Notes: a model not told the origin generated them from the sequence alone. A DNA stretch of 64,000 nt from Dehalococcoidia bacterium (GCA_020853755.1 JADYYG010000038.1:4649-68648), one strand, 5' to 3'; counted from the stretch's first letter, positions 28,488 through 60,824 are shown. Translations and numbers: made by a program.

Positions 28488-28868
28488 ATGCCGATTCCAG
28501 TTGTAATGGGCGCCCAGATCATGTGTTCCTTTGGGACCGGACCCGGGTCGTTAATCGTGGTCCCACAGGGGCCGCCAGTGCTGATCGAAGGGAAGCCCGC
28601 CGCAACGGTGATGGACCACATCCCGTTCGTGAACATCGCGCCGTTCCCGACCTGCATCGCGCCGACGAACCCGGCCGGGATGGCGAAAGTGCCGCCAACG
28701 CCCGGCCCGTGCATCCCGGTGACCACGGCCCCCTGGGTTCCCCCGTCACCGACAACTCAGATCAACAAGAAGCCGGCACTCTGCATGGGCGCGACGCTGA
28801 TGTGTACCGCCTGGGCGGGCGTCATCACCATCGTGAACCCCGGCGCCACCAAGGAAATCGTCAACTAG
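28488..28868 (+). CDS. DUF4280 (PAAR-like spike-tip) domain protein
   Basis: 126 aa. The pattern VVMGAQIMCSFGTGPGSL..GKPAATVMDHIPFVNIAPFPTC..PGPCIPVTTAPWVP..KPALCMGATLMC..GVITI follows the DUF4280 Cys/Pro pattern closely. Confidence 0.8.
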   Translation: MPIPVVMGAQIMCSFGTGPGSLIVVPQGPPVLIEGKPAATVMDHIPFVNIAPFPTCIAPTNPAGMAKVPPTPGPCIPVTTAPWVPPSPTTQINKKPALCMGATLMCTAWAGVITIVNPGATKEIVN

Positions 28869-30208
28869 GACGCCCGGCTGCGCCCGAACGCCCGCCGCTC
28901 GGGCCGGAGGCCTTCGGCTGCGCGCAGGCAGAGGGCCAGGCTCGCCACGCAGTCATCGTGTTCGCCCTGCGGCGCGGCCCACCCGATCTGGAGATGGCCC
29001 GCGCGTTCGACCCGGCAGAGGCGCAGTTCGCGCCAGAGCCGGCCAATCCCGGCGCTCCCGGCCCGGGCAATGGCGAGGCGGCCCGTCGCCGCGGCGGCCT
29101 GCAAGGCGAACCCCAGCGCTGACTTCTCGGCACGGGTGAAGACGAGCGGCTCGACTACCCGCCCGAGTTCGCCACGGAGCTGCGCGGTGAGCGCCGCGCC
29201 GAGGCCGGTGGCATCGCAGACCAGCCGCTCGATTCGCCAGGCGCGGGCAAGCGCCGCCACCGCCGCAACCTGCGTTTCGAACGGCGTGCCGGTCCAGCAT
29301 TCGACGGCCACGACCTCCAGCCCGCCATCGGTTTGCCGGCCGATGGTGAGGACGGTCGAGTCGCCGCCGAGCCGTTCGCCCGCGAAATCGAGCCCGGCGC
29401 AGTAGCGTTCGCCCGGCAGTGGTTGTTCGAGCGCCGGGAAGCTGCCGGCGACGGCGCGGAGGGCCTCGGGTGAGAGCAGCGTTGCCTCGGACGCCGCGGC
29501 CACCAGGTCGTACTGGGACCGGAAGATCGGGTGATCCGCACCAAGGCGCTCGCGTTCGAGTTCGACGTAGCGGCCATAGGGCGGGTTGTACCGCGCGACC
29601 TCGGCCCAGCTGAACTGGTGGTGCCAGCTGCGGAGGCTGATTTCCGCCGGGCTCCCGGTCAGGCCCGCGTCGCGCCGGCGGTTGGCTTCGACGGCGTCTT
29701 CGAGAAGCGAGTTGCCGCTCCACGGCGTGCCGAACATCACCGTCGATGCTCCAGTTGATGCCGTCATCGGCCGGAACTGGCGGTTGAACCAGTCAGCATC
29801 GATGTCCTGCGCTTCGTCGGCGATGAGGGCGAGCGAGGCGGTGTGCCCGGCGACGTTCGCGGTTGGCGCGGCGCTGAGGAAGACGGCGTGCGCGCGGCCG
29901 CAATGGATGGCCTGGCCCTCGCGCCGCGGGCGGATTGGGAAGAGGTCATCCCAGCGGCGCATCTGGGCGAGCGTGCGCTGGAGGCTTAGGCCCGCCTGGG
30001 GCCGGAAGCTCGGCGCGCAGACCACGATGCTGCCGCCTTCGGCGGCGTTCGCCAGTAACAGCCCGGCCACCAGCCACGCCGAGATCTCATTCTTGCCTGC
30101 CTGCCGCGGGAACATCACGGTCAGCGTCTGGCCGCGGGCCGCGACGAGGTTGTAGTGGAGGCTGCGAAGCGTAGCCGCCTGGTAGGCGCGAAGACCGGGG
30201 ATTGCCAT
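28865..30208 (-). CDS. phage terminase large-subunit-like protein
   Basis: 447 aa with the N-terminal LRAYQ...FPRQAGKNE (Walker A-like, GKN instead of GKS/T) and LALIADEAQDI (Walker B). The C-terminal RNaseH-like nuclease acidic residues are present (GLDFAGE, VCDATGLG, GEHDDCV). Codon usage looks host-like. Confidence 0.75.
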   Translation of the reverse strand: MAIPGLRAYQAATLRSLHYNLVAARGQTLTVMFPRQAGKNEISAWLVAGLLLANAAEGGSIVVCAPSFRPQAGLSLQRTLAQMRRWDDLFPIRPRREGQAIHCGRAHAVFLSAAPTANVAGHTASLALIADEAQDIDADWFNRQFRPMTASTGASTVMFGTPWSGNSLLEDAVEANRRRDAGLTGSPAEISLRSWHHQFSWAEVARYNPPYGRYVELERERLGADHPIFRSQYDLVAAASEATLLSPEALRAVAGSFPALEQPLPGERYCAGLDFAGERLGGDSTVLTIGRQTDGGLEVVAVECWTGTPFETQVAAVAALARAWRIERLVCDATGLGAALTAQLRGELGRVVEPLVFTRAEKSALGFALQAAAATGRLAIARAGSAGIGRLWRELRLCRVERAGHLQIGWAAPQGEHDDCVASLALCLRAAEGLRPERRAFGRSRAS

Positions 30209-30260
30209 GCCTTGGAGGGTGGCTTGCCTGCGCGTTTGGTCGAACGCCCTGCTGGCGCGC

Positions 30261-30782
30261 TTAGTTCGCGGCCGGGTTTGGCGTTTCGGTAGCCGTTGGT
30301 TCGGTCGTCGGGGCGGGAGTCTCGCTGCCCGGCGTTGCCGTTTCGGTGGCCTCGGGCGTTGGCGTGCCCTCCGGTGTTTCCGTCGCTTCCGGCGTCTCGT
30401 CGGTGTCCGAGGCGACGTTCACGATCTTGAGCGGAGGAGGCGTCGGATCGGCGGCGGCGGCGCTCACACCCGCATCATCACCCGAGAGGCCGAAGATGCG
30501 CAGCGGCGTCAGCGTGGGCGAGGGTTCTGGTTCAGGTTCGGCGACGAGCGCGGGGGCGGCGGGTTCTTTGTGGACAACCGGCTCGATGTACGACGTCAAC
30601 AGGGTGTCGAGTGCGGGGACGGTGAACGGCGTTCCGGTGTCGATAACGCGGGCCTGTTGGGTGGCCGGCGGCGGGCCTTCGAATGGCCCCCATTGCGCCC
30701 GCTCGGCGGAACTGAGCGCGAGGCCAGACACGCCGATCGCGAAAAGCACCATGGCCAGCAGGAGGGGCGCTTTCCCTGCCAT
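30261..30782 (-). CDS. membrane-anchored protein with acidic T/P/E-rich tail (hypothetical)
   Basis: 173 aa. It begins MAGKAPLLLAMVLFAIGVSGLAL (TM anchor), with GGGAAAGAGGGGG upstream. The C-terminus is low-complexity TPEATETP repeats. Confidence 0.6.
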   Translation of the reverse strand: MAGKAPLLLAMVLFAIGVSGLALSSAERAQWGPFEGPPPATQQARVIDTGTPFTVPALDTLLTSYIEPVVHKEPAAPALVAEPEPEPSPTLTPLRIFGLSGDDAGVSAAAADPTPPPLKIVNVASDTDETPEATETPEGTPTPEATETATPGSETPAPTTEPTATETPNPAAN

Positions 30783-30964
30783 AACGCCGATCTTGCCCCC
30801 TCTTTCCCGTCAGCGCCACCTTGAGGATGGCGCTGTCACCTGTTCGCTCCATCCTGACACCCGAATTGGCCCTGCGCGACCCGCCACCCGTAAGGGTTCT
30901 CCCCCATTCCCGCCGGGCAACCCCCGCTGTTTCGGCGAAGGGCTGCCCGGCAGCGAACCGGGCC

Positions 30965-32575
30965 TTAGCGGGCGAGGAACTCCTTGCTTGCCCAGCCCGT
31001 CTCACCGGAAGGCGCCTGCACCTTGTGGAAGGTGACGCCCCCCGCGGCCTGCTCGTCCGAGAGGTCACGCAGGAGCACGGTATCCGCGTAGCAGCCGAGC
31101 ACCTTCGCGCTCGTTGAAGGGGTCTCGCGGACGTTCAGGCAGTCACCGGCGCCGGTCACCCGGAGGAACGGACCGGGTTCGACCAGCTCGATGCGGTTGC
31201 GCTGGAAGTCGTACGCGCTGCTGCCCACCGGCCCGAAGAGTTCGAGCACATTCACGGTCCCCGTGTGGAGGTCCAGCATCGCCGGGTAGAGCGGCGCGCC
31301 GCCGTCGGGGGCCACGTTGCCGAAGGCCACCGCCTGCGTCAGGACGCTGCCGATAGAGAGGCTGGCCGGGCCCTTGAACGCCCGCGTGAGCTTGCCGCCC
31401 TGCATCAGCCCCAGGTAGGCATCCGGCCCGTTCCCGGTGTACCAGCCGATGAGCATATCGCCGCCGGGCGACACGTCGACGATCCATGCGCGCTGGGCTC
31501 CGAGGTCCGGCAGGACGACGAGGGTCGAACCGTCGAGCGCCTGGATGGTGCGATTGTCGGCCATCCGCCAGCCGACGAGGCGGTTCTCCGCGAATTCGGG
31601 TTGCGCGCCCGCTGGCGGGGTGAGCACCTGGTTCGAACCGAGCAGCTGGAAGCGCCACTGCACCTGACCGTCGCTGGAGGTGGATCGGTTGACGAGCACG
31701 CCCTGGGCGGTCGTCGCCGCGACGGTGGCCGCGCCGTCGAAGGTCCCGAGCGCCTGCCAGCTGACGCCGCCGTCCGTCGAGCGGTAGATAGTGGTCTGCG
31801 CATCGGCGCTGATCTGGCCGACGTCGCCGCAGTAGCCGCGGGTGCACATGCTCAGGTAGTCCGCGCCGTCGCGCGTCCAGTAATCGCCGATGATGTCGCC
31901 GGGCGGCTTCGGCAGCGCCTCGATCTTGAGCTTGCCGTTTGCATCGAGGGTGACGCGTTCGAAACCGGTCGTCGGGCCGTCGCACTGGTAGCAGCCCTTC
32001 GCCACGATGACCGAGAGCGGCACCGGCAGTGAGCCGGGCGCGCCGAACGTCATTGCGGAAACCGGGACACCGGCCACCACTTCGCCGGTGGGATTGGCGA
32101 TGATGGGCGAAGGCGCCGGCGTGACGCTGGCGGGAACGCTGGGCGAGGCGGTGGCGGGCGCGGGCACGGTCGCGGTGGATTCGATGCCGCCACCGGCATG
32201 CTCTTCGCCTTCGCTGCCGGTTTCGTAGAGGGCGAAGATCGCCATCGCCGCGATGATGGCAACCCCGGCGGCCAGGGCAGTAACCCCGGCCCACTTGAAG
32301 ACGCCCGAGGTGGCGAAGCCGGCAACGCGTGTGATTCGCATCCGCCAGCCGTTTTCGTGGCGCCAGTATTCGGCCGCCTCATCGCGCGATTGGACGCCGA
32401 GGCGGGTGATGATTTCGCTGACGTGCCACTTGGCGCCGTCGAGGCTGATGCCGAGTTCCTCGGCGATTTCGCGGTTCGTGCGGCCGCGTGCGAGCAGGGT
32501 GAGAACCTCCCGCTGGCGCGGTGTCCAGCTCGTCACACGGGACGTTTCGATGGGAGAGGGCGTTGTCACAGTCAT
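30965..32575 (-). CDS. membrane-tethered LuxR-family HTH regulator with extracytoplasmic Asp-box domain and C-terminal SH3b-like domain
   Basis: ATG at 32575. The N-terminal LuxR HTH is TPRQREVLTLLARGRTNREIAEELGISLDGAKWHVSEI. One TM helix follows (WAGVTALAAGVAIIAAMAIFAL). The ectodomain carries STDGGVSW (Asp-box). The C-terminal ~60 aa look SH3b-like. Confidence 0.75.
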   Translation of the reverse strand: MTVTTPSPIETSRVTSWTPRQREVLTLLARGRTNREIAEELGISLDGAKWHVSEIITRLGVQSRDEAAEYWRHENGWRMRITRVAGFATSGVFKWAGVTALAAGVAIIAAMAIFALYETGSEGEEHAGGGIESTATVPAPATASPSVPASVTPAPSPIIANPTGEVVAGVPVSAMTFGAPGSLPVPLSVIVAKGCYQCDGPTTGFERVTLDANGKLKIEALPKPPGDIIGDYWTRDGADYLSMCTRGYCGDVGQISADAQTTIYRSTDGGVSWQALGTFDGAATVAATTAQGVLVNRSTSSDGQVQWRFQLLGSNQVLTPPAGAQPEFAENRLVGWRMADNRTIQALDGSTLVVLPDLGAQRAWIVDVSPGGDMLIGWYTGNGPDAYLGLMQGGKLTRAFKGPASLSIGSVLTQAVAFGNVAPDGGAPLYPAMLDLHTGTVNVLELFGPVGSSAYDFQRNRIELVEPGPFLRVTGAGDCLNVRETPSTSAKVLGCYADTVLLRDLSDEQAAGGVTFHKVQAPSGETGWASKEFLAR

Positions 32576-32662
32576 GACTCTACCGTAGGAGGGAACCGGT
32601 CGCGGCTCCCTACCCGATGGTAAAGATTGCAATGAGCGATGTGACGCAGTTCACACGATCCG

Positions 32663-33241
32663 TCAGCTCGTCATCCCCTGCAGGCCCACGAGCGCGCGGC
32701 CGTGCTCGATTTCGCCCATGTGGCGAAGGCCGTGCTGGTAGACGAAGCACTCCAGCACTTCGAGCCGGCGCAGCGGCGCGCCCGGCCCGATGACGATCGC
32801 GCAGAAGATGTTCTGCATGTTCGGCGGCAACTGGGGCATGAGCACTTCGGCCAGGCGCTCGGCGGTGATGGTTTCGAGGGCGCCTTTCGTCCGGGCGATG
32901 ACCGCCGACTGGTATGCCCGCCACGCGTCGAGGTCGCCGAAGCGGAGGTGTTGCATCTCCTCCACGGTCTCCTCGCGGCCGAGGACATCGACGGTCACGC
33001 CTACCTTGTCGCGCCAGCCGCCGGTCTCCCAGAGCGGGTTTTCGGCGAGGAAGACGCGGCTGACGGACTGGTCCTGGGCCTTGATGTAGTGGCTGAAGCT
33101 GAACGCCATGGGCAGCACGCCGTCGCGCTCGTGGTGGTTCACCTGCTCGAGCGAAAGGTCGCTCACGGCGCGCTCCCAGAGCACGTTCATGGCGTTGATG
33201 CGGTTGCGCAGGCTTGTAACGAACATCGCTTCGTGGCTCAT
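32663..33241 (-). CDS. DinB-family (DinB_2-like four-helix metal-binding) protein
   Basis: 192 aa with spaced His residues (HHERD ... HYIKAQD ... HMGEIEHGR), as in DinB-superfamily proteins. Confidence 0.6.
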   Translation of the reverse strand: MSHEAMFVTSLRNRINAMNVLWERAVSDLSLEQVNHHERDGVLPMAFSFSHYIKAQDQSVSRVFLAENPLWETGGWRDKVGVTVDVLGREETVEEMQHLRFGDLDAWRAYQSAVIARTKGALETITAERLAEVLMPQLPPNMQNIFCAIVIGPGAPLRRLEVLECFVYQHGLRHMGEIEHGRALVGLQGMTS

Positions 33242-34143: not shown

Positions 34144-34197
34144 AGGTTCCCCCGAGGCCGCCGGGCAGGCGGCGGGGGCGATTCTACACGAGGGAGC

Positions 34198-34275: not shown

Positions 34276-34337
34276 GAGGCGCTTTGTGGCAAGATGGTGC
34301 CTGGAGGGCCGTTCGGCCCACTTTGGAGAAGCAGCGA

Positions 34338-35099: not shown

Positions 35100-35193
35100 G
35101 GAACGCTGGCCAGATCACCTATCAACTGACCTCCCCCTCCACAACCTTCCCCCACAGGTCTAAGGTGGAAGGAGAACGCGAAGGAGGCATTCG

Positions 35194-37254
<2,061 letters not shown>

Positions 37255-37332: not shown

Positions 37333-37902
37333 TCATTGCGCCGCTTCGGCGAGGCCGGCCTGCCAGCCCGGCGCGCGGCAACCCGGCGGCAGCGAGAGTT
37401 CCTCCGGGTGCAGCCCGGCCCTCGCGAGGATCCACGCCAGCGCCGAATCGGAGGTCCACATCTCCGGGTGGCCCGGGCGGCGGCGGCCCCAGGTGTAGGC
37501 TGGGACCGAACGGCTGGCGGCGACAATTGCCTCGACGGTTTCGGCGTCACCGGCAAGGCGGACTGGCGGCGCCACCGCCCACTGCTGGTCCGGCAGCGCG
37601 GCGTTCGGCAACAGGCAGACCTGGTAGCGAAACAGCCGCAGCCTGCCCGCGGCGGCGATGCCAACAGGCCCGGTCACTTCGTCGCGGGTGTTCGGCCCAG
37701 GCGGCGACGGCATCAGTTCGAGGGTGAAGGATTCGCCGTGCAACCGGCAGACCAGCCCGCCGTGTACGAGACGCTGACGCGGGCGGCGCGCAATCGTGGC
37801 GGCGCACCATTCGTACGCGAGGAGCGAAGCCCGCTGGAAGTGCGTCCCCGCGCCGACCGGGATCCACCAGAGGTCGACGCTGGAATCACCGGGAGGTTCC
37901 AC
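37333..37902 (-). CDS. conserved hypothetical protein
   Basis: 189 aa. The N-terminal VDLWWIPVGAGTHF motif recalls an uncharacterised family common in high-GC Gram-positives. No function assigned. Confidence 0.65.
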   Translation of the reverse strand: MEPPGDSSVDLWWIPVGAGTHFQRASLLAYEWCAATIARRPRQRLVHGGLVCRLHGESFTLELMPSPPGPNTRDEVTGPVGIAAAGRLRLFRYQVCLLPNAALPDQQWAVAPPVRLAGDAETVEAIVAASRSVPAYTWGRRRPGHPEMWTSDSALAWILARAGLHPEELSLPPGCRAPGWQAGLAEAAQ

Positions 37903-37979: not shown

Positions 37980-38579
37980 TCAGGCTGGCACGTAGAGGCG
38001 GTGCTGGCGCACACGGTTCTTTCGCCCGTAGGTGTGGAGTAGCTGCCGGAAGGCGGTCTGGCGCGCCCGCGCGAGAGCGGCGTACCGTTCGCTGGCCTCC
38101 GGTTGGAGGGTGACGATATTCGTGACGCCGGCTGCCAGTTCGAGCGCCGCATAGGCCGCCGCGCCCGTCACCAGGACGTCCGCCAGGTGGTCCGGCAGCG
38201 TCGAACCATCCTCGTCGAGCACGTGCGAGGCCGTGTAGAAGACGCGCACGTCCGCTCCGTCGGGCGGCGAATCGGTGTGCAGGATGAGTGTTTGCGCCCA
38301 GGTTCCGAAGCCCGGGTAACACGGCGGGTACTGTCCGATGGGGTACTCGACCATCTCCACTTCGATCAGGGCGTCGAGCGCGGAGAGGTCGAGGTCGCGG
38401 CTACCCGCCGTGGTCGCGATGTCCTCGGACAGTTCGCGCGGGATGGCAAGGCTCAGGTCGGAAAGCGCGTGGGCGATGTGCCGGTCGATCTGGTCATCCG
38501 GCCAGGCCGTGGCATCGAGGTCGGACAGGTCGCTGCGGACGCGCCCGCGGATATCGGTGAGGGTGGTCATGGCGGTCAC
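37980..38579 (-). CDS. phage-associated hypothetical protein (possible head-completion / neck adaptor)
   Basis: 199 aa. The pattern LTDIRGRVRSDLSDLD..WPDDQIDRHIAHALSDLSLAIPRE ... RLYVPA resembles proteins I have seen next to capsid genes in prophages. The assignment rests on recollection only. Confidence 0.4.
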   Translation of the reverse strand: MTAMTTLTDIRGRVRSDLSDLDATAWPDDQIDRHIAHALSDLSLAIPRELSEDIATTAGSRDLDLSALDALIEVEMVEYPIGQYPPCYPGFGTWAQTLILHTDSPPDGADVRVFYTASHVLDEDGSTLPDHLADVLVTGAAAYAALELAAGVTNIVTLQPEASERYAALARARQTAFRQLLHTYGRKNRVRQHRLYVPA

Positions 38580-38663
38580 CGTAGCCAGCCGCCCGGCGAG
38601 CGCGAACGGCCCGATGGCACGCCCGGCGGTTCCGCGTTGAACCTATGCGTGGACCCTGTGGCG

Positions 38664-39200
38664 ATGCACCCCTGGCACGATATCCCCGTCAACCCCGCAG
38701 ACATCGAGACGCACCTCCCGGTTGTCGTCGAAATCCCGGCGGGCAGCAAGAACAAGTACGAACTCGATAAGCCGACCGGCATCCTCAAGCTCGACCGCGT
38801 GCTCTACAGCTCGGTCCACTACCCGGCGAACTACGGCTTTATCCCGCGCAGCTACTGCGACGACGGTGACCCGCTCGATGTCCTCGTCCTCGGCCAGGAG
38901 CCGGTCCACCCGCTGACGCTCATCTTCGTGCGTCCGATTGGCGTGATGCACATGCGCGACCAGGGGAAGGCCGACGACAAGGTGCTCGCGGTCCATGCCA
39001 ACGATCCCGCGGTGAACCACCTCCAGGAATTGGACGAAGTGCCGCCGCACACCATGCTCGAAATCCGGCGCTTCTTCCTCGACTACAAAGTGCTCGAAGA
39101 GAAGGAAGTGGTGGTCGACCCATTCCAGGGCCGCCTCGCCGCGATCGAGGTCATCCGCCAGGCGCTCGTGGACTATCAGGCGCTCCGGGCGAAGGGTTAG
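38664..39200 (+). CDS. ppa: inorganic pyrophosphatase (family I)
   Basis: ATG at 38664 (MHPWHDIP..). It has EIPAGSKNKYE, YPANYGFIP and DGDPLDVLVL motifs. Confidence 0.9.
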   Translation: MHPWHDIPVNPADIETHLPVVVEIPAGSKNKYELDKPTGILKLDRVLYSSVHYPANYGFIPRSYCDDGDPLDVLVLGQEPVHPLTLIFVRPIGVMHMRDQGKADDKVLAVHANDPAVNHLQELDEVPPHTMLEIRRFFLDYKVLEEKEVVVDPFQGRLAAIEVIRQALVDYQALRAKG

Positions 39201-39292: not shown

Positions 39293-39730
39293 ATGCTGGA
39301 CGTTTTCGCTCGCCGCGCCGTGCGCATCTTTCCCTGCGGTTCCACGCGTTCCCATCACTCCCAGTTTGCGTTGCTCGCAGCGGCGCCGGCCGCGGCCGGG
39401 ACAGGCGGTGCAGGCTTCGACCCGGTGTTTCTCGTTTGCGGCCTGGCCGTCCTGAGCGCGGGCCTCGTCGTCCTCCACGCGGCCCAATCGTTGCCGCGCC
39501 GAGCGCCGGCGATGGCGCTCGCGGGCGAACCGCGCCGCCTGTTCACGGCCGACGAAGCGCTCGCCGAGCGGGACCGCCTGCGCGAAACCTCGGTCCTCGT
39601 CGATGCCCTGGCCGAAGCGGCGGCGACCTTCTACGCCATCGCCGGGCAACTGCCCCAGGACGCCTCGGAACGCGTGGTCCAGCGCGCAGATGACCTGCGC
39701 GAACTGGTCTGGCAGAACCGGACGGGGTGA
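39293..39730 (+). CDS. hypothetical protein (weak call)
   Basis: 145-aa ORF with one hydrophobic stretch (FDPVFLVCGLAVLSAGLVVL) and a helical acidic C-terminus. I recognise no family. The antisense ORF looks worse. Confidence 0.35.
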   Translation: MLDVFARRAVRIFPCGSTRSHHSQFALLAAAPAAAGTGGAGFDPVFLVCGLAVLSAGLVVLHAAQSLPRRAPAMALAGEPRRLFTADEALAERDRLRETSVLVDALAEAAATFYAIAGQLPQDASERVVQRADDLRELVWQNRTG

Positions 39731-39778: not shown

Positions 39779-40642
39779 ATGACCAGGAGCACTGATCTGC
39801 CCTTTGAGGGTGAAACTGCCATTGCTCTTTTCCAGGCGAAGCAAGTCCGCCGTATATTCCACGATGATGAGTGGTACTTCTCGATCATCGATGTCGTCGA
39901 AGCTCTAACCGACTCAGGTACCCCACGCCGCTACTGGTCAGATCTCAAGGCAAAACTTGGCCGAGAAGCAGGGGATCTTCAACTGTACGATGAAATCGTA
40001 CAGTTGAAACTAGAGGCTGCTGACGGGCGCCTCCGCGAGACCGACACCGCCAATGCCGAGACTCTCCTGCGTATCATCCAATCCATCCCTTCGCCGAAGG
40101 CGGAGCCTTTCAAGCGCTGGCTCGCTCGGGTCGCCTTCGAGCGGCTCCAGGAGTACCAGGATCCCGAGAAAGCGATCCGGCGGGCAATCCTTGATTATCA
40201 ACTACAAGGTTATGACGATGACTGGATCGACACCCGCATCAAGACCATCGTCAGCCGGAAAGAACTGACCGGCGAATGGGCAAGACGTGGAGTCAAAGAA
40301 GGGCAAGAGTTTGCCATCCTGACCAATGTAATTTCGGAGGAGACCTTTGGTGTCGGCGTCCAGGCTCATAAGGAGCACAAGAGCCTGAAACGGAACCATA
40401 ACCTTCGGGACCACATGACCGATCTGGAGCTTATCCTCACGATGCTCGGAGAGAAGTCCACGGTGAACATCGCCCGGGCTCGCGATGCGCAGGGGTTTCA
40501 GCAGAACAGGGGCGCGGCCACGGATGGCGGGAAGATCGCAGGAGATGCGCGGAGGAACTTGGAGAGGGAGCTCGGGGAGTCCGTGGTGTCCCCCTCGAAT
40601 TTTCTTCCCGACAGGCGCCGGCCGGAACTCCCAACCGAATAA
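39779..40642 (+). CDS. BRO-N domain / DNA-damage-inducible protein D (DinD)-like protein
   Basis: 287 aa. The N-terminal Bro-N-like region is FQAKQVRRIFHDDEWYFSIIDVVEAL. The C-terminal part is collinear with E. coli DinD as I recall it (..KSLKRNHNLRDHMTDLEL..). The gene is clearly lower in GC than its surroundings. Confidence 0.75.
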   Translation: MTRSTDLPFEGETAIALFQAKQVRRIFHDDEWYFSIIDVVEALTDSGTPRRYWSDLKAKLGREAGDLQLYDEIVQLKLEAADGRLRETDTANAETLLRIIQSIPSPKAEPFKRWLARVAFERLQEYQDPEKAIRRAILDYQLQGYDDDWIDTRIKTIVSRKELTGEWARRGVKEGQEFAILTNVISEETFGVGVQAHKEHKSLKRNHNLRDHMTDLELILTMLGEKSTVNIARARDAQGFQQNRGAATDGGKIAGDARRNLERELGESVVSPSNFLPDRRRPELPTE

Positions 40643-42482: not shown

Positions 42483-43496
42483 TCACATTCCGTCATCGAA
42501 GTAGCTGACCTGCTGTCCTGTGCAGTTGTACAGGACAGCGTCGTCGTTATCCGAATTGCTCCACTGGCTTGCAGCGGTCCACCACAGGGTAGCCGGCGTG
42601 TTGGGGAACGCCGGCGTTCCAGACCGAATCTGTACTGAGCCGTTCAGGGTGAAGTTGCCGGGGAAGTCGAACCGCTGCTGTCCCTTCACCGAGATGACGT
42701 ACCACCCAGTCATGTTTCCCGAGCCCGAGACGGTCACCACCTCTCCGAACTTATCCAGACCGGTGATCGTTGCAGTGGCAGCCTGGCATAAGCTGCCGAC
42801 CGTGGGTGTAGGGGTAGCTGTCCCCTGCGGCGTGGGGCTTGGCGTCGCGGTTGCCGTCGGCGATTGAACCGGGGTGGCGGTTCCGGGAACACCGACCATG
42901 CCGCATACAGGCCAGAGGCCGCGCTTCTCCGCCTTCGCCTCTTGCTGTGCCGCCTCGATGCGTGCCCGGTACTTTACGTCGGGAGGGTACACCGCCAGCT
43001 CGGCGTACCCGTCGCGAACGAGGCGCTCGTTGAACAATGCGCCGTCGAGCCAGACGTAGCGCAGGTTTCGCCCGAATGAATCCTTGTTCGACACATCCTT
43101 TTCAAGCGCCACCTGGTGGTTGAGGAGTGCCTCGTTCGTGTAGCCCGCCGCCTGCTTCCCGAAGCATTCACCCGGGTTTATCTCGGGTGTGTTCACAAGG
43201 ATGAGCCGGACACGCCCGGGTTCGGCGCAACCGGCGACGTCGATAGTGTCCCCATCGACAATGTGTGTGACTGTGCAGATGGCCATGCCCGCCGGTGTGC
43301 TGGCGGGCATGGCCGTTGCGGTTGCTGTCATCGCCGGAGTGGCTGGAGGGGCTGCGGAGTCAGCTGCGAGTTGCGGTAGCCGAGCGCGCACCAAGGTGCT
43401 CGAAGCACTGCTGGTTCGTTCGGAGGAGACCATCGCGAGAACGCCGAGCGCGAGACCGCATCCGGCAAGAAGCGCCGCGGAGAACCTGCCGTTCAT
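42483..43496 (-). CDS. secreted thermonuclease (SNase) fused to a lamin-tail-like C-terminal domain
   Basis: 337 aa with a signal/anchor. The SNase core is HIVDGDTIDV..RVRLILVNTPE..GRNLRYVWL. A PT linker follows, then a C-terminal ITGLDKFGEVVTVSGSGNMTGWYV...NSDNDDAVLYN, which is LTD-like. Confidence 0.75.
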   Translation of the reverse strand: MNGRFSAALLAGCGLALGVLAMVSSERTSSASSTLVRARLPQLAADSAAPPATPAMTATATAMPASTPAGMAICTVTHIVDGDTIDVAGCAEPGRVRLILVNTPEINPGECFGKQAAGYTNEALLNHQVALEKDVSNKDSFGRNLRYVWLDGALFNERLVRDGYAELAVYPPDVKYRARIEAAQQEAKAEKRGLWPVCGMVGVPGTATPVQSPTATATPSPTPQGTATPTPTVGSLCQAATATITGLDKFGEVVTVSGSGNMTGWYVISVKGQQRFDFPGNFTLNGSVQIRSGTPAFPNTPATLWWTAASQWSNSDNDDAVLYNCTGQQVSYFDDGM

Positions 43497-43649
43497 AAAG
43501 CCGCTCCGATCTGTACGTTTGTCTCGAATCTATCCCTGCCTGCACTCGTCGGGAAGAGGTATCGCAAAACTCGTCATCGGTTGACGCGAACAGCTATCCC
43601 CGGTGACTCGAATCACGTGATATGCTCCGGCACCGGGTGGTATTGCGAA

Positions 43650-44261
43650 ATGAACGGTGAACCGCGGAAAGACTACGGTGCATTCGACAACTTCATGCGC
43701 TGGCTTGGGCGAACAATCGCTCGGATGAGTAAGCGATGGTGGCGCGTGAGTCCGCGGTGGCGGATCGAAACCACAGCTATCGCCGTGCTGGTCCCGCTCA
43801 TCGCCGCCGCATCGGCCTGCGGTGGGGAATCGAGTTCCTCCCCAGCTTCTCGCGATGAAGATACTTCTTCCGGCGTGACACCCACAGCCCTCGCGTCAGC
43901 CAGCAGCACTGCGACGAGTGCAATCCAGGGCTTCCTGGGCACACCGGCGGCGAGTTCTCCGGCTACAGCTTCCGGCGTTGCCACGGTCGCGGCGACTGCC
44001 ACCACTGTGCCATCAGCAACTCAAGTCCCGGCGACTGCAACAAAGATGCCGCCCACGCCAGTACCACCCACGCCAATACCGCCCACGCCAATACCGCCCA
44101 CGGCCACCGCCACCGCCACTTCGGCGCCTTCGGTGTATTACCCGAACTGTGCTGCGGTCCGCGCGGCGGGCAAGGCCCCGCTTTATCGCGGTGACCCCGG
44201 GTATCGCTCGGGGTTAGACCGGGACAATGACGGCATTGCGTGTGATACGGTCGGGAACTAG
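43650..44261 (+). CDS. secreted/lipoprotein with C-terminal Excalibur calcium-binding domain
   Basis: The C-terminus YYPNCAAVRAAGKAPLYRGDPGYRSGLDRDNDGIAC is the Excalibur signature. It also has a TM/lipobox-like AAASAC, a PT-rich linker and a 15-bp tandem (PPTPI). Start is uncertain: ATG 43650 or TTG 43581. Confidence 0.7.
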   Translation: MNGEPRKDYGAFDNFMRWLGRTIARMSKRWWRVSPRWRIETTAIAVLVPLIAAASACGGESSSSPASRDEDTSSGVTPTALASASSTATSAIQGFLGTPAASSPATASGVATVAATATTVPSATQVPATATKMPPTPVPPTPIPPTPIPPTATATATSAPSVYYPNCAAVRAAGKAPLYRGDPGYRSGLDRDNDGIACDTVGN

Positions 44262-45199: not shown

Positions 45200-46090
45200 T
45201 CAGGCCGCGCGCACGCCGGTGAGCCGGGCCAGCTTTACGCTGTTGAACAGCGCGAGCCCCGCGTACCACTTCACCCGCACGCGGCTGGCGTCCTTCGTTT
45301 CGAGGTTGCCGACGCGGTCGACGGTGAGGCCGCCGGGAGCGGTCAGCCCGCTGAGCGCTCCCTCGCCGAACTGCATCGCGTAGATGGTGCTGCAGTCGTT
45401 GCTCGTGCCGACGGTTTTCGCGTCGCTGATGTAGTCGCAAATGCCGATCGGCACGCCGTCGTAGTACTGGACCATGTGGCCGAACTGGTCGCGGTCCGCT
45501 TCGAGGAAGCCGCCGCTGGCGCGGGCCAGTTCGTTCAGCGTGCGCCGGGTGCGGCGGCTCATCAGCAGCAACTCCGGCTTGCCGCCGCGCACCTTGTCGA
45601 TCATCTCGTCGAGTTTCGCCAGCGTGAGGACGGCGCCGTTCGTGCCCATGCTGACCGATTGCCCGGCGGCGCAGAGCACGTCGATGCCGTCGAAGCTCAG
45701 CGGGTCCACGCCGTCGTCGCCGTTCACGAAGGTGTCGTCGAAGAGCGCCTGGACGGCCTTCGCCTTGAGCTGGACGACCGCGGCTTCGAGGTCCTGGATG
45801 TTCGAACGGGTGGACTTGAGGAAGTTATCGACGTCCGCGTCGCCGCCGAGGATTTTCAGCGTCGCGGTCGCCTGGGTGAAGGTCGGCGTGCTTTCGTCCC
45901 AGTCGTCGCCGACGTCGTAGAAGCTGGCCGAGGGAGCGGCGTTTTCACGGTTGTAGGTCAGGCCGTTGCCGACGATCTCGACGAACGGCAGGCGCTGGAG
46001 GATGGGGCTTTCGAGCGCGATCGTCTCGATCACGCCGGTGAGCAGCGAGTCGTTGCTCAGTTTCGAAGCTTCGACGAGGGTCAGGGCCAA
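45200..46090 (-). CDS. phage major-capsid-like protein (presumed HK97-fold)
   Basis: TTG start at 46090, 7 nt after a perfect AAGGAGG, giving 296 aa. The N-terminus ALTLVEASKLSNDSLLTGVIETIALESPILQRLPFVEIVGNGLTYNRE resembles a recurrent phage MCP family from memory. The upstream 76 aa of the track ORF are implausible. Confidence 0.65.
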   Translation of the reverse strand: MALTLVEASKLSNDSLLTGVIETIALESPILQRLPFVEIVGNGLTYNRENAAPSASFYDVGDDWDESTPTFTQATATLKILGGDADVDNFLKSTRSNIQDLEAAVVQLKAKAVQALFDDTFVNGDDGVDPLSFDGIDVLCAAGQSVSMGTNGAVLTLAKLDEMIDKVRGGKPELLLMSRRTRRTLNELARASGGFLEADRDQFGHMVQYYDGVPIGICDYISDAKTVGTSNDCSTIYAMQFGEGALSGLTAPGGLTVDRVGNLETKDASRVRVKWYAGLALFNSVKLARLTGVRAA

Positions 46091-46172
46091 GTGGGCGCCT
46101 CCTTGTGGGTTGGCTCGATGGTTGCGAGCCGCGGGAGGAACCCGAAGGGCCGGTTGGCACGAACGCAGAAGG

Positions 46173-54820: not shown

Positions 54821-54835
54821 GCCGGGCGGCCGGGC

Positions 54836-55771: not shown

Positions 55772-55966
55772 TGCGCGATCCTAGGGCCTGCGCGGGTAGC
55801 GGCGAACCAGCCCCGCGGGCGCGGTTTGCCGGCGCCCTCGGTCTTTGGTCGGATTGCCGGGCCGAGCGTGAACCGGGCCACTGTTGGTAGTCGAGCAAAC
55901 AGGGAACCTCGAGTGCAGGCGCTGGCGGAGGCGCCGCCACTTTTGTTTGAGGGAGCACCCCATTTC

Positions 55967-56647: not shown

Positions 56648-56673
56648 CCCGGGCGGCCGCGCGCCACATAGAG

Positions 56674-56714
56674 GCGGACCCTTTCGCCACAGGCAAGGGG
56701 TCCGCTTCGTTTCT
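56674..56714 (+). terminator. intrinsic terminator
   Basis: GCGGACCC-(16 nt)-GGGTCCGC followed by TTCGTTTCT, 27 nt after the stop at 56647. Confidence 0.6.
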
Positions 56715-56719
56715 GGAAC

Positions 56720-57472
56720 CTACTTCAGCAGACCGTCGAGGAGCTTGCGCCACTCCGCAGCGCTCGCGGGGCCATCGGTCACCTTCCCGTTAATCACGAA
56801 CGACGGCGTGCCCGGGAGGTTCAGGTCATTCGCCGACTTGAGGTCGGCCTGGACTGCGGTCACGGCCTTATCGCTCGAAATGCAGTCGCCGAACTTCGCG
56901 GTATCGAGTTTCAGGTCGCTGGCGAGTTGCTTGAGGCCGTCAGGTGCGAAGGCCTGGTTGAGCGATGGCCCCTTGCGCTCGTTCGCTTCGGCCTGGGCGA
57001 TAAAGAGCAGCCGGTGGTACGCCCAGAACTGGTTCTGTTCGCCCGCGCAGTACGCGCCGATGGCCGCTGCCGCGGTGATCTGGTGGAGCGGGAAGTAGCG
57101 GTAAACGAGCTGCACCTTCCCCGTAGCCACGTACTCGTCCATCAGCACCGGTTCGATCGAGGCGGTGAAGTCGAGGCAGTGCGGGCAGCCGAAGTCCTCG
57201 TACATTTCCACGACGACCTTCGCATCCGCCTTGCCGATGGCCTGGCCGTTCGCGAGGTCCTGCGGGATCTTCGCCTGGTTGATCTTCTTGCCGAGGGCCG
57301 ATTGCGGCGAACCGTTGCCGGTGACGCCCGCGGCCGTCGGGGCGGCTTTGGTGGCTGCCGTGGTTGGTTCTGGGCCGCTGTCGTCGTCATCTCCGCCACA
57401 GGCCGCGAAGACGGCGCCCGCCGCGAGCAGGGCCACGCCGGCAACGGCCAGCAGCATGCGGCGCTTATCCAT
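56720..57472 (-). CDS. DsbA-family thiol:disulfide oxidoreductase lipoprotein
   Basis: ATG at 57472 (MDKRRMLLAVAGVALLAAGAVFAAC-GG, lipobox). It has a CPHC active site. Confidence 0.85.
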   Translation of the reverse strand: MDKRRMLLAVAGVALLAAGAVFAACGGDDDDSGPEPTTAATKAAPTAAGVTGNGSPQSALGKKINQAKIPQDLANGQAIGKADAKVVVEMYEDFGCPHCLDFTASIEPVLMDEYVATGKVQLVYRYFPLHQITAAAAIGAYCAGEQNQFWAYHRLLFIAQAEANERKGPSLNQAFAPDGLKQLASDLKLDTAKFGDCISSDKAVTAVQADLKSANDLNLPGTPSFVINGKVTDGPASAAEWRKLLDGLLK

Positions 57473-58316
57473 TGAGGAACCCGTTGACGTGACCCATGAA
57501 GACCTCGAACTGGTCGTGGTGCACCCAGTGGCCGGCGTTCGCCACCTCCACCGAGCGGACATCGTGGAAGGCGCTGAGGTCGACCACGCCGGAGCGATTG
57601 CCCCAGCTCTCCTTGCCCCAGATCACCAGCAACGGGCAGCGAATCTGGTTCCAGAGGTCGCGCGCGTCTTCCATGTTGAACTCGTAGGGCGAACCGGCGT
57701 GGGTGTAGTTGTCGAACTTCCACGTATAGCCGTCTTCGACCTTGCGGACGCCCTGTTCGGTGAGATGGCGGGCCAGTTCCGGCGTGAGGTGGCGGTTGGC
57801 CTCGCGCATCCTCTGCGTGGCCTCATCGATGCTGGCGTAGATGTGGAGCCGGCGCCCTTCGAGGCCCTTCATGCTCTCCACCCAGGAGCGCATGCGGACG
57901 TGCGCGGGCCTTCGTTCACGCGTCCAGCCGAGGCCCCCGAGGCCCTCGATGGTGATCAGCCGGCTGATCTGCTCGGGGAAAGCGCCCGCGTACTGGAGCG
58001 TCACTCCGCCGCCGAGCGAGTGCCCGATGATGGTGTATGGCCCGCGCCCGATCTCCTCGCCGAGGGCGTGGATGTCGAGGGCGTAATCGATGATCGAGTA
58101 GTTGCCGCCCTGGGCCCACGCTGAATCGCCGTGGCCGCGGAGGTCCGGCGCATACACGCAGTAGCGGTCGGCCAGGGCCTGGGCTGTCCGGTCCCAGCTG
58201 CGGGCGTGGTCCCGCGTGCCGTGGACGAGGATGAGCGGCGGCTTCGCCTCATCGCCCCAGACCACGTAGTGCATCTTCAGTCGTTGCGAATAGTAATAGC
58301 GGCTCTCTGGCTCCAT
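57465..58316 (-). CDS. alpha/beta-fold hydrolase
   Basis: 283 aa with HGTRDH, the nucleophile elbow GHSLGG and a C-terminal His (AGHWVHHD). Confidence 0.85.
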   Translation of the reverse strand: MEPESRYYYSQRLKMHYVVWGDEAKPPLILVHGTRDHARSWDRTAQALADRYCVYAPDLRGHGDSAWAQGGNYSIIDYALDIHALGEEIGRGPYTIIGHSLGGGVTLQYAGAFPEQISRLITIEGLGGLGWTRERRPAHVRMRSWVESMKGLEGRRLHIYASIDEATQRMREANRHLTPELARHLTEQGVRKVEDGYTWKFDNYTHAGSPYEFNMEDARDLWNQIRCPLLVIWGKESWGNRSGVVDLSAFHDVRSVEVANAGHWVHHDQFEVFMGHVNGFLNG

Positions 58317-58465
58317 AGCTCACCAAGGGTAAGCGGCAAGCCTGTGGCAGGGAATCCGCGTGTGAACCCGGGCTCGCCGGCGCAACTGCTGAGTGATTTT
58401 GTCCGAAGCGCGGTGACAAACCTCCCTTCGCCGTCGGGTGCGAAGGAAAACACCCTTGTCCCGCG

Positions 58466-60535
58466 ATGCTCACTCTCACCAGCACCCTCCAAGCCGCCAT
58501 CGGCGACCCTCGCCGTAAGCCCGCTATCGCCGCCTCAGTCCAGCCCTACCGCTTCAACGTCCCCATCCTCACCGCTTCCTGGCTCGGCGCCAACGGCTCC
58601 GCCGATACCCAACTCTCCCTCGCCGTCAATCCCACCGACCGCTCAAAGCTCGTCGCTGTCCGCTCCAACGGCACCGCCCTCGACTTCTCTACCCCCTACC
58701 CCTCCGGCGCCTGGACTAACCTCGACACTATCTCCGCAGGCCAGGGCTTCCAGCTCGCCTACGACCCCACAGCCGCCGTCTTCGCCGTCGCCTATGGTGA
58801 CGGTACGGCCCTCAAATTCCGCACCTCCGCTGACGGCCTCACCTGGTCCGCCGCCACCACCATCGTCACCGAGGCCTCTAACATCGGAGCCGTCGCACTC
58901 GCCTTCGACGACTCCGGCGACGCCTGCGTCTTCTACGTCATCGGCACCTCCACCACCCTCAACCGCATCCGCCGCACAGCTGGCGCCTGGGCGGCCTCCG
59001 GCGCCAACTGGTCCCGCTCGTCCAGCGTCGCCAACCTCACCGGCCTCGCCGCCTACTGGCGCGCCGACTACTTCCTCGCCGTCACCGGCCTCGCCGCCAC
59101 ATCCCTCGCCCCCACCGCCTGGGCGGTCCGCATGGGAGACACCTTCTACGCCCCCAACGCCTGGTCAACCCTCAAAACCATCACCGAGGCTGACCCAGCC
59201 TCTACACTCACCTTCGCCTACCCCTCCATCGTCGACTTCGACGGCTACGCCTTCGCCACCTTCCAGCGCACCGAAGCCGGCAACGTCCCCAGCCAGACCG
59301 TCCAGCTCGCCCACTCCCTCTCTCCCGGCCCTATCGGCCTCTGGTCGGAACCTCGCCCCGTCCCATGGATCGACACCACCCACGGAGCCGCACTCGCACA
59401 CTTCGACGACGACACCTACAACCTCACCTGGATCGCAGGCTCCGCCTACGGCCACGTCTCCCAGCATCCCCCTTCCTACGACGTCTCAGCCCGCATCCTC
59501 GCACTCTCCTACCGCCTCACACCCGGCTCCCTCAGCCTCCGGCTCGAGCTCGACAACCACGACGGCAACGCACGCTTTCACCCCTCAGCCGACTTCCGCA
59601 TCGACGTCGGCCGCGACGTCCTCGTCTCCCTCGGCTACCACACCTCAGCCGGAGCCGAGCACGCCACCTTCCTCCGCGCCAACATCCACCGCATCACCGA
59701 CCAGATCGGCCCCGGCGCTCACCGCCTCATCATCGAGGCTAGCGGCCCATGGGAAGCCATGGACCGCTACCGTGCCCTCGCCGCCTGGACTGCACCCGCA
59801 GGCACCACCCGCGGCAACACCTTCCAGCGCGTCGCCGCTCTCGCCGGCCTTGAAGTCTCCACCGCCTCCGGCGGCTTCGCACCCTCCACCGCCTGGACCA
59901 CCGACACCCCGGCCTTCGCCATCGCCGCCGGCGAGAAGGGTTCAACCACCCTTCAACGCCTCCTCACCGTCACACCCGACTTTGTCCGCCCAGCCTTCGG
60001 CTCCGGCGGCCTTGAAATCTGCACCGCACCCGTCGACACCTCCGGCGCGCCCATCTTCGCCCTCGGCCCTTCCCCTGGTTCCCCCTACCCCCTGCTTGAC
60101 CTCCAACTCGCCGACCAGCTCGCGCCCAACCTCTTCCGCCTGCAGGGTCCCGACCGCTACGCCGACTCCGCCCGTCTCGGCGCCGACGGCTACGTCGACA
60201 TCCTCAGCGTCGGCCCCGCCGCCCAGCTCGTCCGTGACCTGGACGCCACCACCAACACCGCCGCCACCACCCGCGCCGCCAACGCCCGCAAACGCGCCCT
60301 GCAGCTGGAGCCTCGCGGCCGCGCCGTCGTCCCATTTCACCCCGGCCTTGAACTCTTCGACCCCGTCGCCTTCCGCTGGAACCTCAACCCCCTCGACGGA
60401 CTGGAAGACGCAACCCGCCGCATCGTCGGCCTCGCCGTCGACTACCGCGCCGACCCGGCCCCAGCCGCCGGCGCCGGTCGCGTCGCCTACACCGCCACAC
60501 TCGACCTCGCCGAAGCCGCCGGCTTCGACGGCTAA
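58466..60535 (+). CDS. phage tail/baseplate-hub-like protein with N-terminal Asp-box (BNR) beta-propeller-like region
   Basis: 689 aa. It has SADGLTW (Asp-box). The C-terminal half (..LSLRLELDNHDGNARF..DVLVSLGYHTSAGAEHATFLRANIHRI..LIIEASGPWEAM..) resembles gpD/gp27-type hub proteins from memory. Almost every codon ends in C. The 897-aa alternative frame 58131..60824 is a P/S/T-rich shadow. Confidence 0.6.
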   Translation: MLTLTSTLQAAIGDPRRKPAIAASVQPYRFNVPILTASWLGANGSADTQLSLAVNPTDRSKLVAVRSNGTALDFSTPYPSGAWTNLDTISAGQGFQLAYDPTAAVFAVAYGDGTALKFRTSADGLTWSAATTIVTEASNIGAVALAFDDSGDACVFYVIGTSTTLNRIRRTAGAWAASGANWSRSSSVANLTGLAAYWRADYFLAVTGLAATSLAPTAWAVRMGDTFYAPNAWSTLKTITEADPASTLTFAYPSIVDFDGYAFATFQRTEAGNVPSQTVQLAHSLSPGPIGLWSEPRPVPWIDTTHGAALAHFDDDTYNLTWIAGSAYGHVSQHPPSYDVSARILALSYRLTPGSLSLRLELDNHDGNARFHPSADFRIDVGRDVLVSLGYHTSAGAEHATFLRANIHRITDQIGPGAHRLIIEASGPWEAMDRYRALAAWTAPAGTTRGNTFQRVAALAGLEVSTASGGFAPSTAWTTDTPAFAIAAGEKGSTTLQRLLTVTPDFVRPAFGSGGLEICTAPVDTSGAPIFALGPSPGSPYPLLDLQLADQLAPNLFRLQGPDRYADSARLGADGYVDILSVGPAAQLVRDLDATTNTAATTRAANARKRALQLEPRGRAVVPFHPGLELFDPVAFRWNLNPLDGLEDATRRIVGLAVDYRADPAPAAGAGRVAYTATLDLAEAAGFDG

Positions 60536-60553
60536 CCACACCCCAAAAACCCC

Positions 60554-60581
60554 AACCTCAAACCTCAAACCTCAAACCTCT
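60554..60581. repeat. heptamer array aacctca x3 + aacctct
   Basis: Direct reading. It lies in the 76-nt spacer between 58466..60535 and 60612..60824, embedded in C/A-rich sequence. Confidence 0.85.
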
Positions 60582-60611
60582 ACCCCCCAACCCCTACCCC
60601 CGGAGCCCCCC

Positions 60612-60824
60612 ATGGCCGTCCTTCGCGCCCACCTCGTCAGCTTCGACTCAGGAACCTACCTCGCCACCGTCCGCGTCGACGGCTCAGCCGCCCAGGTCCT
60701 CGCCGGCATCCCCACCGCACGCGACATCGCCGCCGCCGAGATGACCGCAGGCCGCCGCGTCCTCCTCGACACCGGCGACCACAACCACCCCTCAGACTTC
60801 GTCGTCACCGTCGTCTACGTCTGA
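60612..60824 (+). CDS. small beta-rich hypothetical protein (phage-tail-associated type)
   Basis: ATG at 60612, 7 nt after GGAG, gives 70 aa (MAVLRAHLVSFDSGTYLATVRVDGSAAQVLAGIPTARDI...). It shares the extreme C-ending codon bias of the preceding gene. Confidence 0.55.
   Translation: MAVLRAHLVSFDSGTYLATVRVDGSAAQVLAGIPTARDIAAAEMTAGRRVLLDTGDHNHPSDFVVTVVYV

Follow-up and report, generated by a model that had tools for sequence, protein, structure and literature searches.

Phage-type head genes scattered through a Dehalococcoidia chromosome as probable parts of one ancient, vertically inherited, gene-transfer-agent-like module

Why should genes for phage particles stand singly among the core genes of a bacterial chromosome? 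The question is raised by a 64,000-nucleotide stretch of DNA from a Dehalococcoidia bacterium (GCA_020853755.1, JADYYG010000038.1:4649-68648), hereafter the window. A sequence-only reading had marked four loci with virion-type genes within it: a large terminase gene beside a DUF4280/PAAR-like gene, a possible neck or adaptor gene, a major-capsid-like gene, and a gene for a hub-like Asp-box protein with a 70-aa partner. That reading preferred a domesticated set, akin to a gene transfer agent (GTA), to a shattered prophage. The preference is borne out by ancestral contiguity, by retention in at least 161 species, by purifying selection, by co-divergence and by a common upstream motif, 'GTA-like' being a functional analogy. 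We consider it probable (about 0.6) that a short-tailed phage gave rise to one ancient module, since then inherited vertically, of which these loci are the dispersed parts, and that the module works by a GTA-like mechanism. That the module is domesticated, scattered and, to judge from its sequence, co-regulated is highly probable; GTA-like function, argued from analogy, is the most likely mechanism, at roughly even odds. A more specific proposal is tentative and falls somewhat short of that: an undescribed, independently domesticated, podovirus-derived GTA across much of Dehalococcoidia/Tepidiformales, with a dispersed, SOS-controlled regulon and a sigma-region-4-like activator reading GTGMCA-N8-TTCG, a motif that each gene would have carried with it when the cluster broke up.

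Gene calling based on the GC content of third codon positions (GC3) gave about 65 genes in the window, whose GC content is 65-71%; the flagged loci form no compositional island. All four hold intact, full-length open reading frames (ORFs) with a GC3 of 0.83-0.87, in agreement with the host-like codons previously noted for terminase and capsid. The loci are indeed separated by cellular genes, which encode a P450, a LuxR-type membrane protein, a metallo-beta-lactamase-fold protein, leuA, ppa, an ABC-F ATPase, a nuclease, an SDR, nhaA, a thiolase, PSP1, holB, radC, APH(6) and corA. The libraries scanned were Pfam, PHROGs and NCBIfam, and further families were sought with hidden Markov models (HMMs) built from relatives. 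As the sequence-only reading had it, no integrase, portal, protease, tube, sheath, tape-measure, lysis or repressor gene was found in the window (three genes at the right end, 60852-63998, lay outside the Pfam scan). The first 26 kb yielded no phage-type Pfam domain, and PHROG scans of the window's hypothetical ORFs added a Bro-N gene only.

The head and packaging set in the window consists of the large terminase subunit (TerL), the major capsid protein (MCP), the adaptor, two proteins here called p689 and p70, and a helix-turn-helix (HTH) protein; together their genes span 8.9-60.8 kb. Profile searches support phage-structural homology, as a domesticated origin requires. TerL (28865-30208, minus strand, 447 aa) matches Terminase_6C (9.3e-12) and phrog_2 (9.3e-19, residues 6-431). 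It has an N-terminal ASCE ATPase and a C-terminal RNase-H-like nuclease, the latter aligning to the G20c/P74-26 TerL structures (PDB 5tge, 5m1f) with all three acidic residues present; its Walker A reads GKN, not GK[ST]. The elements RQxGKN(E/Q), hhhDE, GT[PAT]W, D, D and HDD are invariant in the family (120 + 26 homologues). TerL homologues number 453, are 51-96% identical and are mostly labelled Chloroflexota or Dehalococcoidia.

The capsid assignment rests on two models that agree, phrog_212 (1.8e-70) and NCBIfam NF045672 (MCP_gp7_epsi_15; 6.3e-62, 209.8 bits against a cutoff of 75, profile positions 1-309), together with PF05065. This full-length match above the cutoff of a curated model indicates that MCP (45200-46090, minus strand, 296 aa) is an HK97-fold protein of epsilon15 gp7 type, without a delta domain. 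Its homologues form more than 5698 clusters, of which the top 120 are 79-94% identical; the labelled members of these 120 are mostly Tepidiformaceae, Dehalococcoidia and Chloroflexota, and many lie on contigs of 0.2-2.8 Mb. The perfect Shine-Dalgarno sequence earlier ascribed to the gene is present (AAGGAGG, 7 nt ahead of a TTG start). The terminator ascribed to it is not sustained: the 3' hairpin has a GC stem and only four U's, is indistinguishable from shuffled sequence (z=-1.5), and a scan for intrinsic terminators called none at MCP.

The possible neck gene proved to encode an SU10-type head-to-tail adaptor (37980-38579, minus strand, about 196-199 aa), which matches PF24175 over profile positions 1-182 of 194 with 30.8 bits, above the gathering cutoff of 27. 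The position expected of such an adaptor, just after the capsid gene, is seen in about 25 relatives, where the homologue lies directly 3' of MCP, though not in this window. A fifth locus, absent from the sequence-only reading, holds the gene for the HTH protein, 'c35' (8902-9210, plus strand, 102 aa; family HMM 3.5e-42), a candidate activator of the structural genes. It matches HTH_23/HTH_7 and, weakly, phrog_836 'late transcriptional activator' (1.6e-5), and its homologue stands between TerL and portal in contiguous modules.

The former hub-like protein, p689 (58466-60535, plus strand, 689 aa; family HMM 2.7e-106), is a probable tail or hub protein, directly followed by p70 (60612-60824, plus strand, 70 aa; family HMM 1.3e-26), a small conserved partner. 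Both are counted in the set on account of an operon, MCP-adaptor-p689-p70, found in relatives: their homologues come immediately after MCP and adaptor in some 25 other genomes, and the p689 homologue always lies 3' of the adaptor. Membership of the set is therefore upheld; the hub identity is plausible and unproven, with weak and partial matches. In the N-terminal half, BNR_2 was matched in 3 of 15 family members and PDB sialidase Asp-boxes at E=0.04. In the C-terminal half, weak matches were made to phrog_1887 'tail protein' (5 of 17 members, best 1.3e-4) and to phrog_177 'baseplate hub' (1 of 17), and a PDB profile search gave nothing. A tblastn search of 50,697 cultured phage records gave no match to p689, and hhalign against SU10 gp12 and gp13 was negative. 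The fixed place of p689 after the adaptor suggests a distal neck or a short tail. The p70 domain recurs as the N-terminus (about 70 residues) of 363-425-aa proteins encoded between MCP and adaptor in four relatives (L068:11010-12134, L075:10955-12232, L076:2641-3732 and L078:1962-3152), followed there by a 73-86-aa protein; these long forms may be a fibre or spike variant.

How the genes came to be scattered can be read from related genomes. One genome per species was scanned for the capsid gene, 161 genomes were positive, and 80 loci were fetched with 10-kb flanks; the fetched related loci total 1.77 Mb and are labelled with L-numbers, L091-L119 being IMG/VR contigs. Clustering of the genes neighbouring MCP in relatives yielded four more families: a portal (SPP1_portal 3.6e-22; phrog_64 2.8e-34), a coiled-coil scaffold-like family (weak matches only), a TerS-like family of 110 aa (a very weak match only), and a small HTH family (HTH_7/HTH_23, with a weak 'late transcriptional activator' match). 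Portal homologues number 4344, the top 120 being 67-93% identical to the reference portal. The ancestral order seen in relatives is TerS?-TerL-HTH-portal-scaffold-MCP-adaptor-p689-p70.

Distant Dehalococcoidia carry a contiguous module of 9-11 kb between host genes, at one chromosomal site. On a 233-kb contig, L124:7292-17541 holds a 9.3-kb version (TerS?-83aa-TerL-HTH-portal-scaffold-MCP-126aa-245aa-67aa-adaptor-p689-p70) downstream of Rho, DAHP synthase, YbeY, AsnC and HIT. The same order is found in L126:5585-19036 (392-kb contig), between AsnC-ACAD-ACAD-HIT and MoaC-MoaA-Ham1-FBPase. Because the HIT flank recurs (L123, L124, L126, L127), as does the MoaC-MoaA-Ham1 flank (L067), the module lies at an orthologous site in a number of genomes. 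An integrase, repressor, replication or lysis gene is absent from all of these versions.

Intermediate states are represented by L123, L127, L069 and L070, where cellular genes lie inside the module; the insertions include HlyIII, GNAT, dCTP deaminase-like, PD-(D/E)XK nuclease, PlsY and glycosyltransferase genes. Capsid genes whose products are 69-76% identical to that of the window are followed by the adaptor homologue, then p689, then p70. Locus classes were counted only where at least 8 kb was available on both sides of MCP. The main ones have adaptor, p689 and p70 near MCP (11 loci), TerL only (8 loci), no module gene (11 loci), or all seven core families, that is TerL, HTH, portal, scaffold, adaptor, p689 and p70 (2 loci). 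Chloroflexota of the Dehalococcoidia/Tepidiformaceae group keep the module as host genes, and in the lineage of the window host-gene insertions and rearrangements have split it into single genes or pairs. The window falls in the most scattered state.

The at least 161 species genomes with the capsid gene (69-100% identity) include the complete genome of an isolate, Tepidiforma flava YIM 72310, and Ca. Amarobacter glycogenicus. A near relative of the window is the metagenome-assembled genome (MAG) 'Dehalococcoidia bacterium AS-MESO-OLR.347', with MCP 100% and TerL 96% identical. The ratio of non-synonymous to synonymous substitution rates (dN/dS) was obtained mainly from a comparison of the window with one MAG, STL-CHL37 (loci L013 and L120). 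MCP is 93% identical in amino acids (dN/dS 0.10, dS 0.38), adaptor 79% (0.135, about 1.0), TerL 72% (0.23, 0.9) and DUF4280 80% (0.15, 0.93); the host neighbours (ABC-F, SDR, thiolase, nhaA, metallo-beta-lactamase-fold, DinB-like and DUF2804) are 67-93% identical, with dN/dS of 0.06-0.275 and dS of 0.46-0.87. The similar dS values suggest that the module genes and their neighbours have diverged for an equal time. Towards a closer strain, MCP shows zero non-synonymous changes at dS 0.08, TerL has a dN/dS of 0.10 and adaptor one of 0.08; over the comparisons the ranges are 0.06-0.11 for MCP, 0.08-0.135 for adaptor and 0.10-0.23 for TerL. Each piece is thus intact and under purifying selection.

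Position and composition point the same way. Within a genus-level clade, solo positions are stable: nhaA-MCP-SDR, adaptor-p189-leuA, and TerL convergent with DUF4280. The GC content of MCP follows that of its flanks (r=0.90 over 83 loci, flank GC 0.42-0.73), and pairwise identity of the other components correlates with that of MCP (rho 0.79 for adaptor, 0.84 for portal, 0.57 for TerL, 0.41 for p689). The comparison of synteny and dN/dS across relatives that the sequence-only reading proposed therefore finds conserved loci under purifying selection equal to that on host neighbours, and relatives do not hold the genes as strain-specific fragments under relaxed selection.

A common regulatory signal is the other trait that joins the pieces. 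When the 90-nt stretches preceding MCP were aligned for about 110 loci, they revealed a box that is conserved in relatives whatever the genomic context. Its consensus, GTGMCA-N8-TTCG, has exactly three matches in the window, upstream of MCP, adaptor and p689, where 0.33 would be expected, and none of 100 shuffles reaches three. They are GTGCCAACCGGCCCTTCG (46143-46160, minus strand, 70 nt upstream of the MCP start), GTGCCATCGGGCCGTTCG (38603-38620, minus strand, 41-50 nt upstream of the adaptor start, an exact match) and GTGACAAACCTCCCTTCG (58413-58430, plus strand, 53 nt upstream of the p689 ATG, an exact match). A position weight matrix (PWM) trained on MCP-upstream sites only was run over both strands of the window. 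It ranks the MCP site first, a circular result because the training set held identical sequences from close relatives; the adaptor site is second (21.9 bits), the p689 site third (17.7), and the next match, at 13.2, is intragenic. At 14 bits or more, 71 of the 81 matches in the 1.77 Mb lie at most 250 nt upstream of module genes; among the matches in fetched loci 8 precede adaptor, 4 p689, 3 TerL and 1 scaffold.

TerL is preceded by a one-mismatch form, GCGCCAGCAGGGCGTTCG (30241-30258, minus strand, 50 nt upstream of the ATG), and the TerL genes of L120, L009, L030 and L033 have GTGCC[AG]...TTCG equally far upstream. The window shows no enrichment in one-mismatch matches (10 against 8.2 expected), and the TerL site therefore stands on position and cross-genome conservation only. 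The module-specific motif is thus retained by MCP, adaptor and p689-p70, and probably by TerL. The genes had earlier been called individually expressed; they are indeed separate intact loci, whereas the shared motif makes them an apparent regulon and speaks against independent expression. Between the motif and the MCP Shine-Dalgarno sequence, a second box, (G)ACCATCG, occurs at 46095-46125 (minus strand). It is conserved in the clade of the window (L013-L029, L047, L052), is absent upstream of adaptor, p689 and TerL, and may be an MCP-specific element of the 5' untranslated region or an operator.

The HTH gene has a signal of a different kind. About 40 nt upstream of it lies a perfect 14-bp palindrome of LexA/Cheo type, AGAACGTATGTTCT (8849-8862), the only intergenic match to GAAC-N4-GTTC in the window. 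The perfect form AGAAC-N4-GTTCT, which we take to be a putative Gram-positive-type LexA (SOS) box, occurs at 11 distinct sites in the 1.77 Mb of fetched loci; six of these immediately precede solo HTH or scaffold genes, and another two stand at the module head in L070 and L123. A search of the literature for a Dehalococcoides LexA box found nothing relevant. A candidate promoter upstream of the HTH gene, TTGAGA-17-TCTAAT, fails the -10 rule and is not claimed.

From these parts a working order can be proposed. DNA damage would relieve LexA repression of the HTH protein, which would then activate the promoters that bear the motif. Portal and scaffold, presumably encoded elsewhere in the genome, would assemble proheads with MCP; TerL would cut DNA and pump it into the heads; and adaptor, p689 and p70 would close the portal and form a short tail. 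Such a particle could not propagate itself, because the genes span more than 52 kb, with more presumably outside the window, and include none for replication or integration; it would therefore be a GTA or a similar host-serving particle. The set has some of the traits by which GTAs are recognised: phage-derived genes that are chromosomal, vertically inherited and under purifying selection, without replication, integration or lysogeny-control genes, and not transferable as a unit.

The closest functional analogues of the proposed particle are GTAs of the RcGTA type (Rhodobacter capsulatus, Caulobacter GTA) of Alphaproteobacteria. In both, phage-derived head genes are inherited vertically as host genes without replication or integration genes. 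The RcGTA particle genes are reported to lie at several loci, as a 'multilocus genome' (PMC5026251), and GafA is described as a small, dedicated DNA-binding activator of the RcGTA structural genes (PMC6363796, PMC9638019). Links of GTAs to the SOS response and to stress are likewise reported. Several loci, a dedicated small activator (here the candidate HTH protein) and SOS links would thus be common to the two. In contrast to RcGTA, the host phylum here is Chloroflexota, the module is not homologous as a cluster, its MCP is of epsilon15 gp7 type (the HK97 model TIGR01554 scores 26.3, below its cutoff of 27.5) and its portal, known from relatives, is of SPP1 type. It has no tail tube, tape measure or head-completion set, having instead an SU10-type neck and the unique p689/p70, and its dispersal has gone much further, to single genes each with its own copy of the motif. 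The module is accordingly not a member of the RcGTA-like family (g1-g15, with HK97 MCP and portal and siphovirus tail genes over about 15 kb).

The affinities of the parts lie with the podoviruses epsilon15 and SU10 (Kuravirus). The MCP conforms to the epsilon15 gp7 model and the adaptor to the SU10 model, and the order TerL-portal-scaffold-MCP-adaptor-tail protein matches that of the SU10 genome. Unlike these phages, the module lacks all non-structural phage functions, its MCP is at most 42% identical to that of any cultured phage, and p689 matches neither a cultured phage nor SU10 gp12/gp13.

Could the loci instead be functionless leftovers of a rearranged, decaying prophage? In favour of this, the genes come from a phage and have lost their contiguity, the window lacks portal and scaffold, and a strain-specific, phage-type Bro-N gene lies nearby. 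Yet all ORFs are full length, dN/dS is 0.06-0.23 at dS 0.4-1.0 as in host neighbours, the solo positions are shared by different species within the clade, the capsid gene is retained by 161 species (69-100% identity), the common upstream motif is kept at 3-4 loci and the catalytic residues of TerL are invariant, all of which makes decay very improbable. An intact or recently decayed prophage is set aside as well, in that neither a contiguous block carrying an integrase, a repressor and genes for replication and lysis nor relaxed pseudogenes were found. It is also unlikely that each gene was exapted separately for a cellular job, with no particle formed, an encapsulin-like capsid and a TerL acting as nuclease or translocase. 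Family 3 encapsulins are known examples of solo PF05065 capsid genes, and the window, too, has a solo capsid gene among cellular genes. MCP moreover exceeds TerL by far in conservation and is also detected more widely (over 5698 clusters, TerL 453), and at 11 loci MCP is the sole module gene within 8-10 kb. Unlike such encapsulins, however, MCP is linked to terminase, portal, adaptor and a tail-like protein by a common motif and by an ancestral operon, and no cargo-type or biosynthetic neighbours were seen, so that by the defining features of the class it is not an encapsulin. One motif precedes MCP, adaptor, p689 and TerL, and the components co-diverge; across the wider clade the portal family is no less conserved; and an adaptor and a terminase have no known role in the absence of a portal-bearing capsid.

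A minority possibility is a domesticated particle that is not a GTA: an SOS-induced killing or defence particle, a decoy that packages invading phage DNA or, in genomes with the contiguous form, a minimal self-packaging satellite that uses a helper phage. SOS-type control is typical of bacteriocin-like particles and satellites, a contiguous module of 9-11 kb could fit a capsid of this MCP type, IMG/VR lists module contigs as viral, and the BNR/Asp-box-like domain of p689 could bind glycans. Capsid-forming phage-inducible chromosomal islands are about 10 kb long, carry genes for terminase, portal, scaffold, capsid and connector but no full tail, and are SOS-linked; the module resembles them as a small head set of about 10 kb without a full tail and with putative SOS-linked induction. 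It differs in lacking integrase, replication and helper-interference genes and in its orthologous chromosomal position, and because it is scattered it is not mobilisable as a unit in many lineages; by their defining features it is not a satellite island. No integrase, replication, toxin or immunity gene was found in or beside any version, the contiguous module stands at one orthologous site with common host flanks in several genomes, and self-transfer is impossible in the window, given the span of the genes. A head with an active terminase, furthermore, implies DNA packaging, unlike tailocins.

Several observations weigh against a GTA-like module. Searches of the window with family HMMs and phmmer found no portal, scaffold or TerS-like gene, and neither lysis genes nor a receptor-binding protein were identified. 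For the copies of p689 and p70 in the window, Pfam, PHROGs and NCBIfam gave no match, and the AlphaFold2 single-sequence model of p689 is unusable (predicted local distance difference test score 31). The Walker A of TerL (PRQAGKNE, residues about 33-41) has Asn where Ser or Thr is usual; this Asn is invariant in the 120 + 26 family members, contiguous-module lineages included, and to judge from that alignment is a family trait, not a lesion. On the regulatory side, no -10 element was recognised for the motif, a sigma-70 scan found no promoter upstream of MCP or the HTH gene, and the assignment of the palindrome to LexA is made by analogy. Lastly, in genomes where the module is contiguous (9-11 kb), it may package itself.

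If the dispersed loci do form a GTA-like module, its significance is several-fold. No description of this system was found in the searchable literature, nor was any GTA found described in Chloroflexota, and to our knowledge only a handful of independent GTAs are known. The phylum abounds in soils, sediments, hot springs and wastewater, and some of its organisms do not lend themselves easily to genetic manipulation. The states from contiguous to interrupted, split and scattered form a natural graded series in which a viral cluster appears to dissolve into a host regulon with its function retained, each fragment keeping the private regulatory motif. Since cultured carriers exist (Tepidiforma flava YIM 72310), particles, their DNA content and SOS induction are directly testable; particles that do transfer DNA might also be developed as a genetic tool in this group.

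There is also a warning for virus-mining pipelines, as short module contigs are filed as viral in IMG/VR though the module behaves as a host locus. A related capsid gene is carried by 29 IMG/VR contigs (4-20 kb, GC 35-70%), with MCP at most 64% identical to that of the window, and in about 25 of the 29 the module genes present stand in canonical order. Because the module behaves as chromosomal and host-like, many of these module-only contigs may be host fragments and not viruses.

Of the genes beside the module, the DUF4280/PAAR-like one (28488-28868, plus strand) is convergent with TerL, with a 4-bp overlap. Its earlier identification, like that of TerL, is confirmed by profile search (PF14107 3.9e-29), and the protein has weak similarity to the PAAR-like protein IglG of the type VI secretion system. 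It adjoins TerL only in the clade of the window (window, L009, L120-L122), and support for counting it in the module stops at this adjacency. Its upstream region is conserved and sigma-70-like, and lacks the module motif; because this region differs from those of the module genes, DUF4280 is treated as a lineage-specific neighbour of TerL, a possible add-on whose membership is uncertain.

Two hypothetical genes flank the adaptor-ppa region, one of 189 aa (37333-37902, minus strand) and one of 145 aa (39293-39730, plus strand). Both are kept in the genus-level clade, with a dN/dS of about 0.21; they have no Pfam, PHROG or NCBIfam match and were not found with the module in other lineages. The Bro-N gene (39779-40642, plus strand; PF02498 1.5e-8, phrog_15286 1.8e-88, weak DinD/DdrC-like NCBIfam matches) sits in the lowest-GC patch of the window (0.62) and is unrelated to the conserved module. 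Because it is absent from the otherwise syntenic close relatives L001-L005, it is best seen as a strain-specific, phage-associated insertion. Between ABC-F and SDR lie a secreted staphylococcal-nuclease-type gene (42483-43496, minus strand) and an Excalibur-domain gene (43581-44261, plus strand); since SDR and ABC-F are directly adjacent in L001 and L002, this stretch (42483-44261) would be a second small strain-specific insertion.

Long spurious ORFs abound in the window, both antisense and in other reading frames, as is typical of DNA with 68% GC. An 897-aa ORF at 58131-60824 (plus strand) is real only in its last 70 codons, which are p70, and a 365-aa ORF at 38103-39200 is real only as ppa, from about 38691; because ppa starts near that point, it does not overlap the adaptor gene on the opposite strand. 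Between 58000 and 62000 the GC skew, taken over 2 kb at a time, is strongly negative (-0.23 to -0.34), perhaps through amino-acid composition or strand effects; such values are far outside those of the remaining sequence, and this interval coincides with p689, p70 and the next plus-strand genes.

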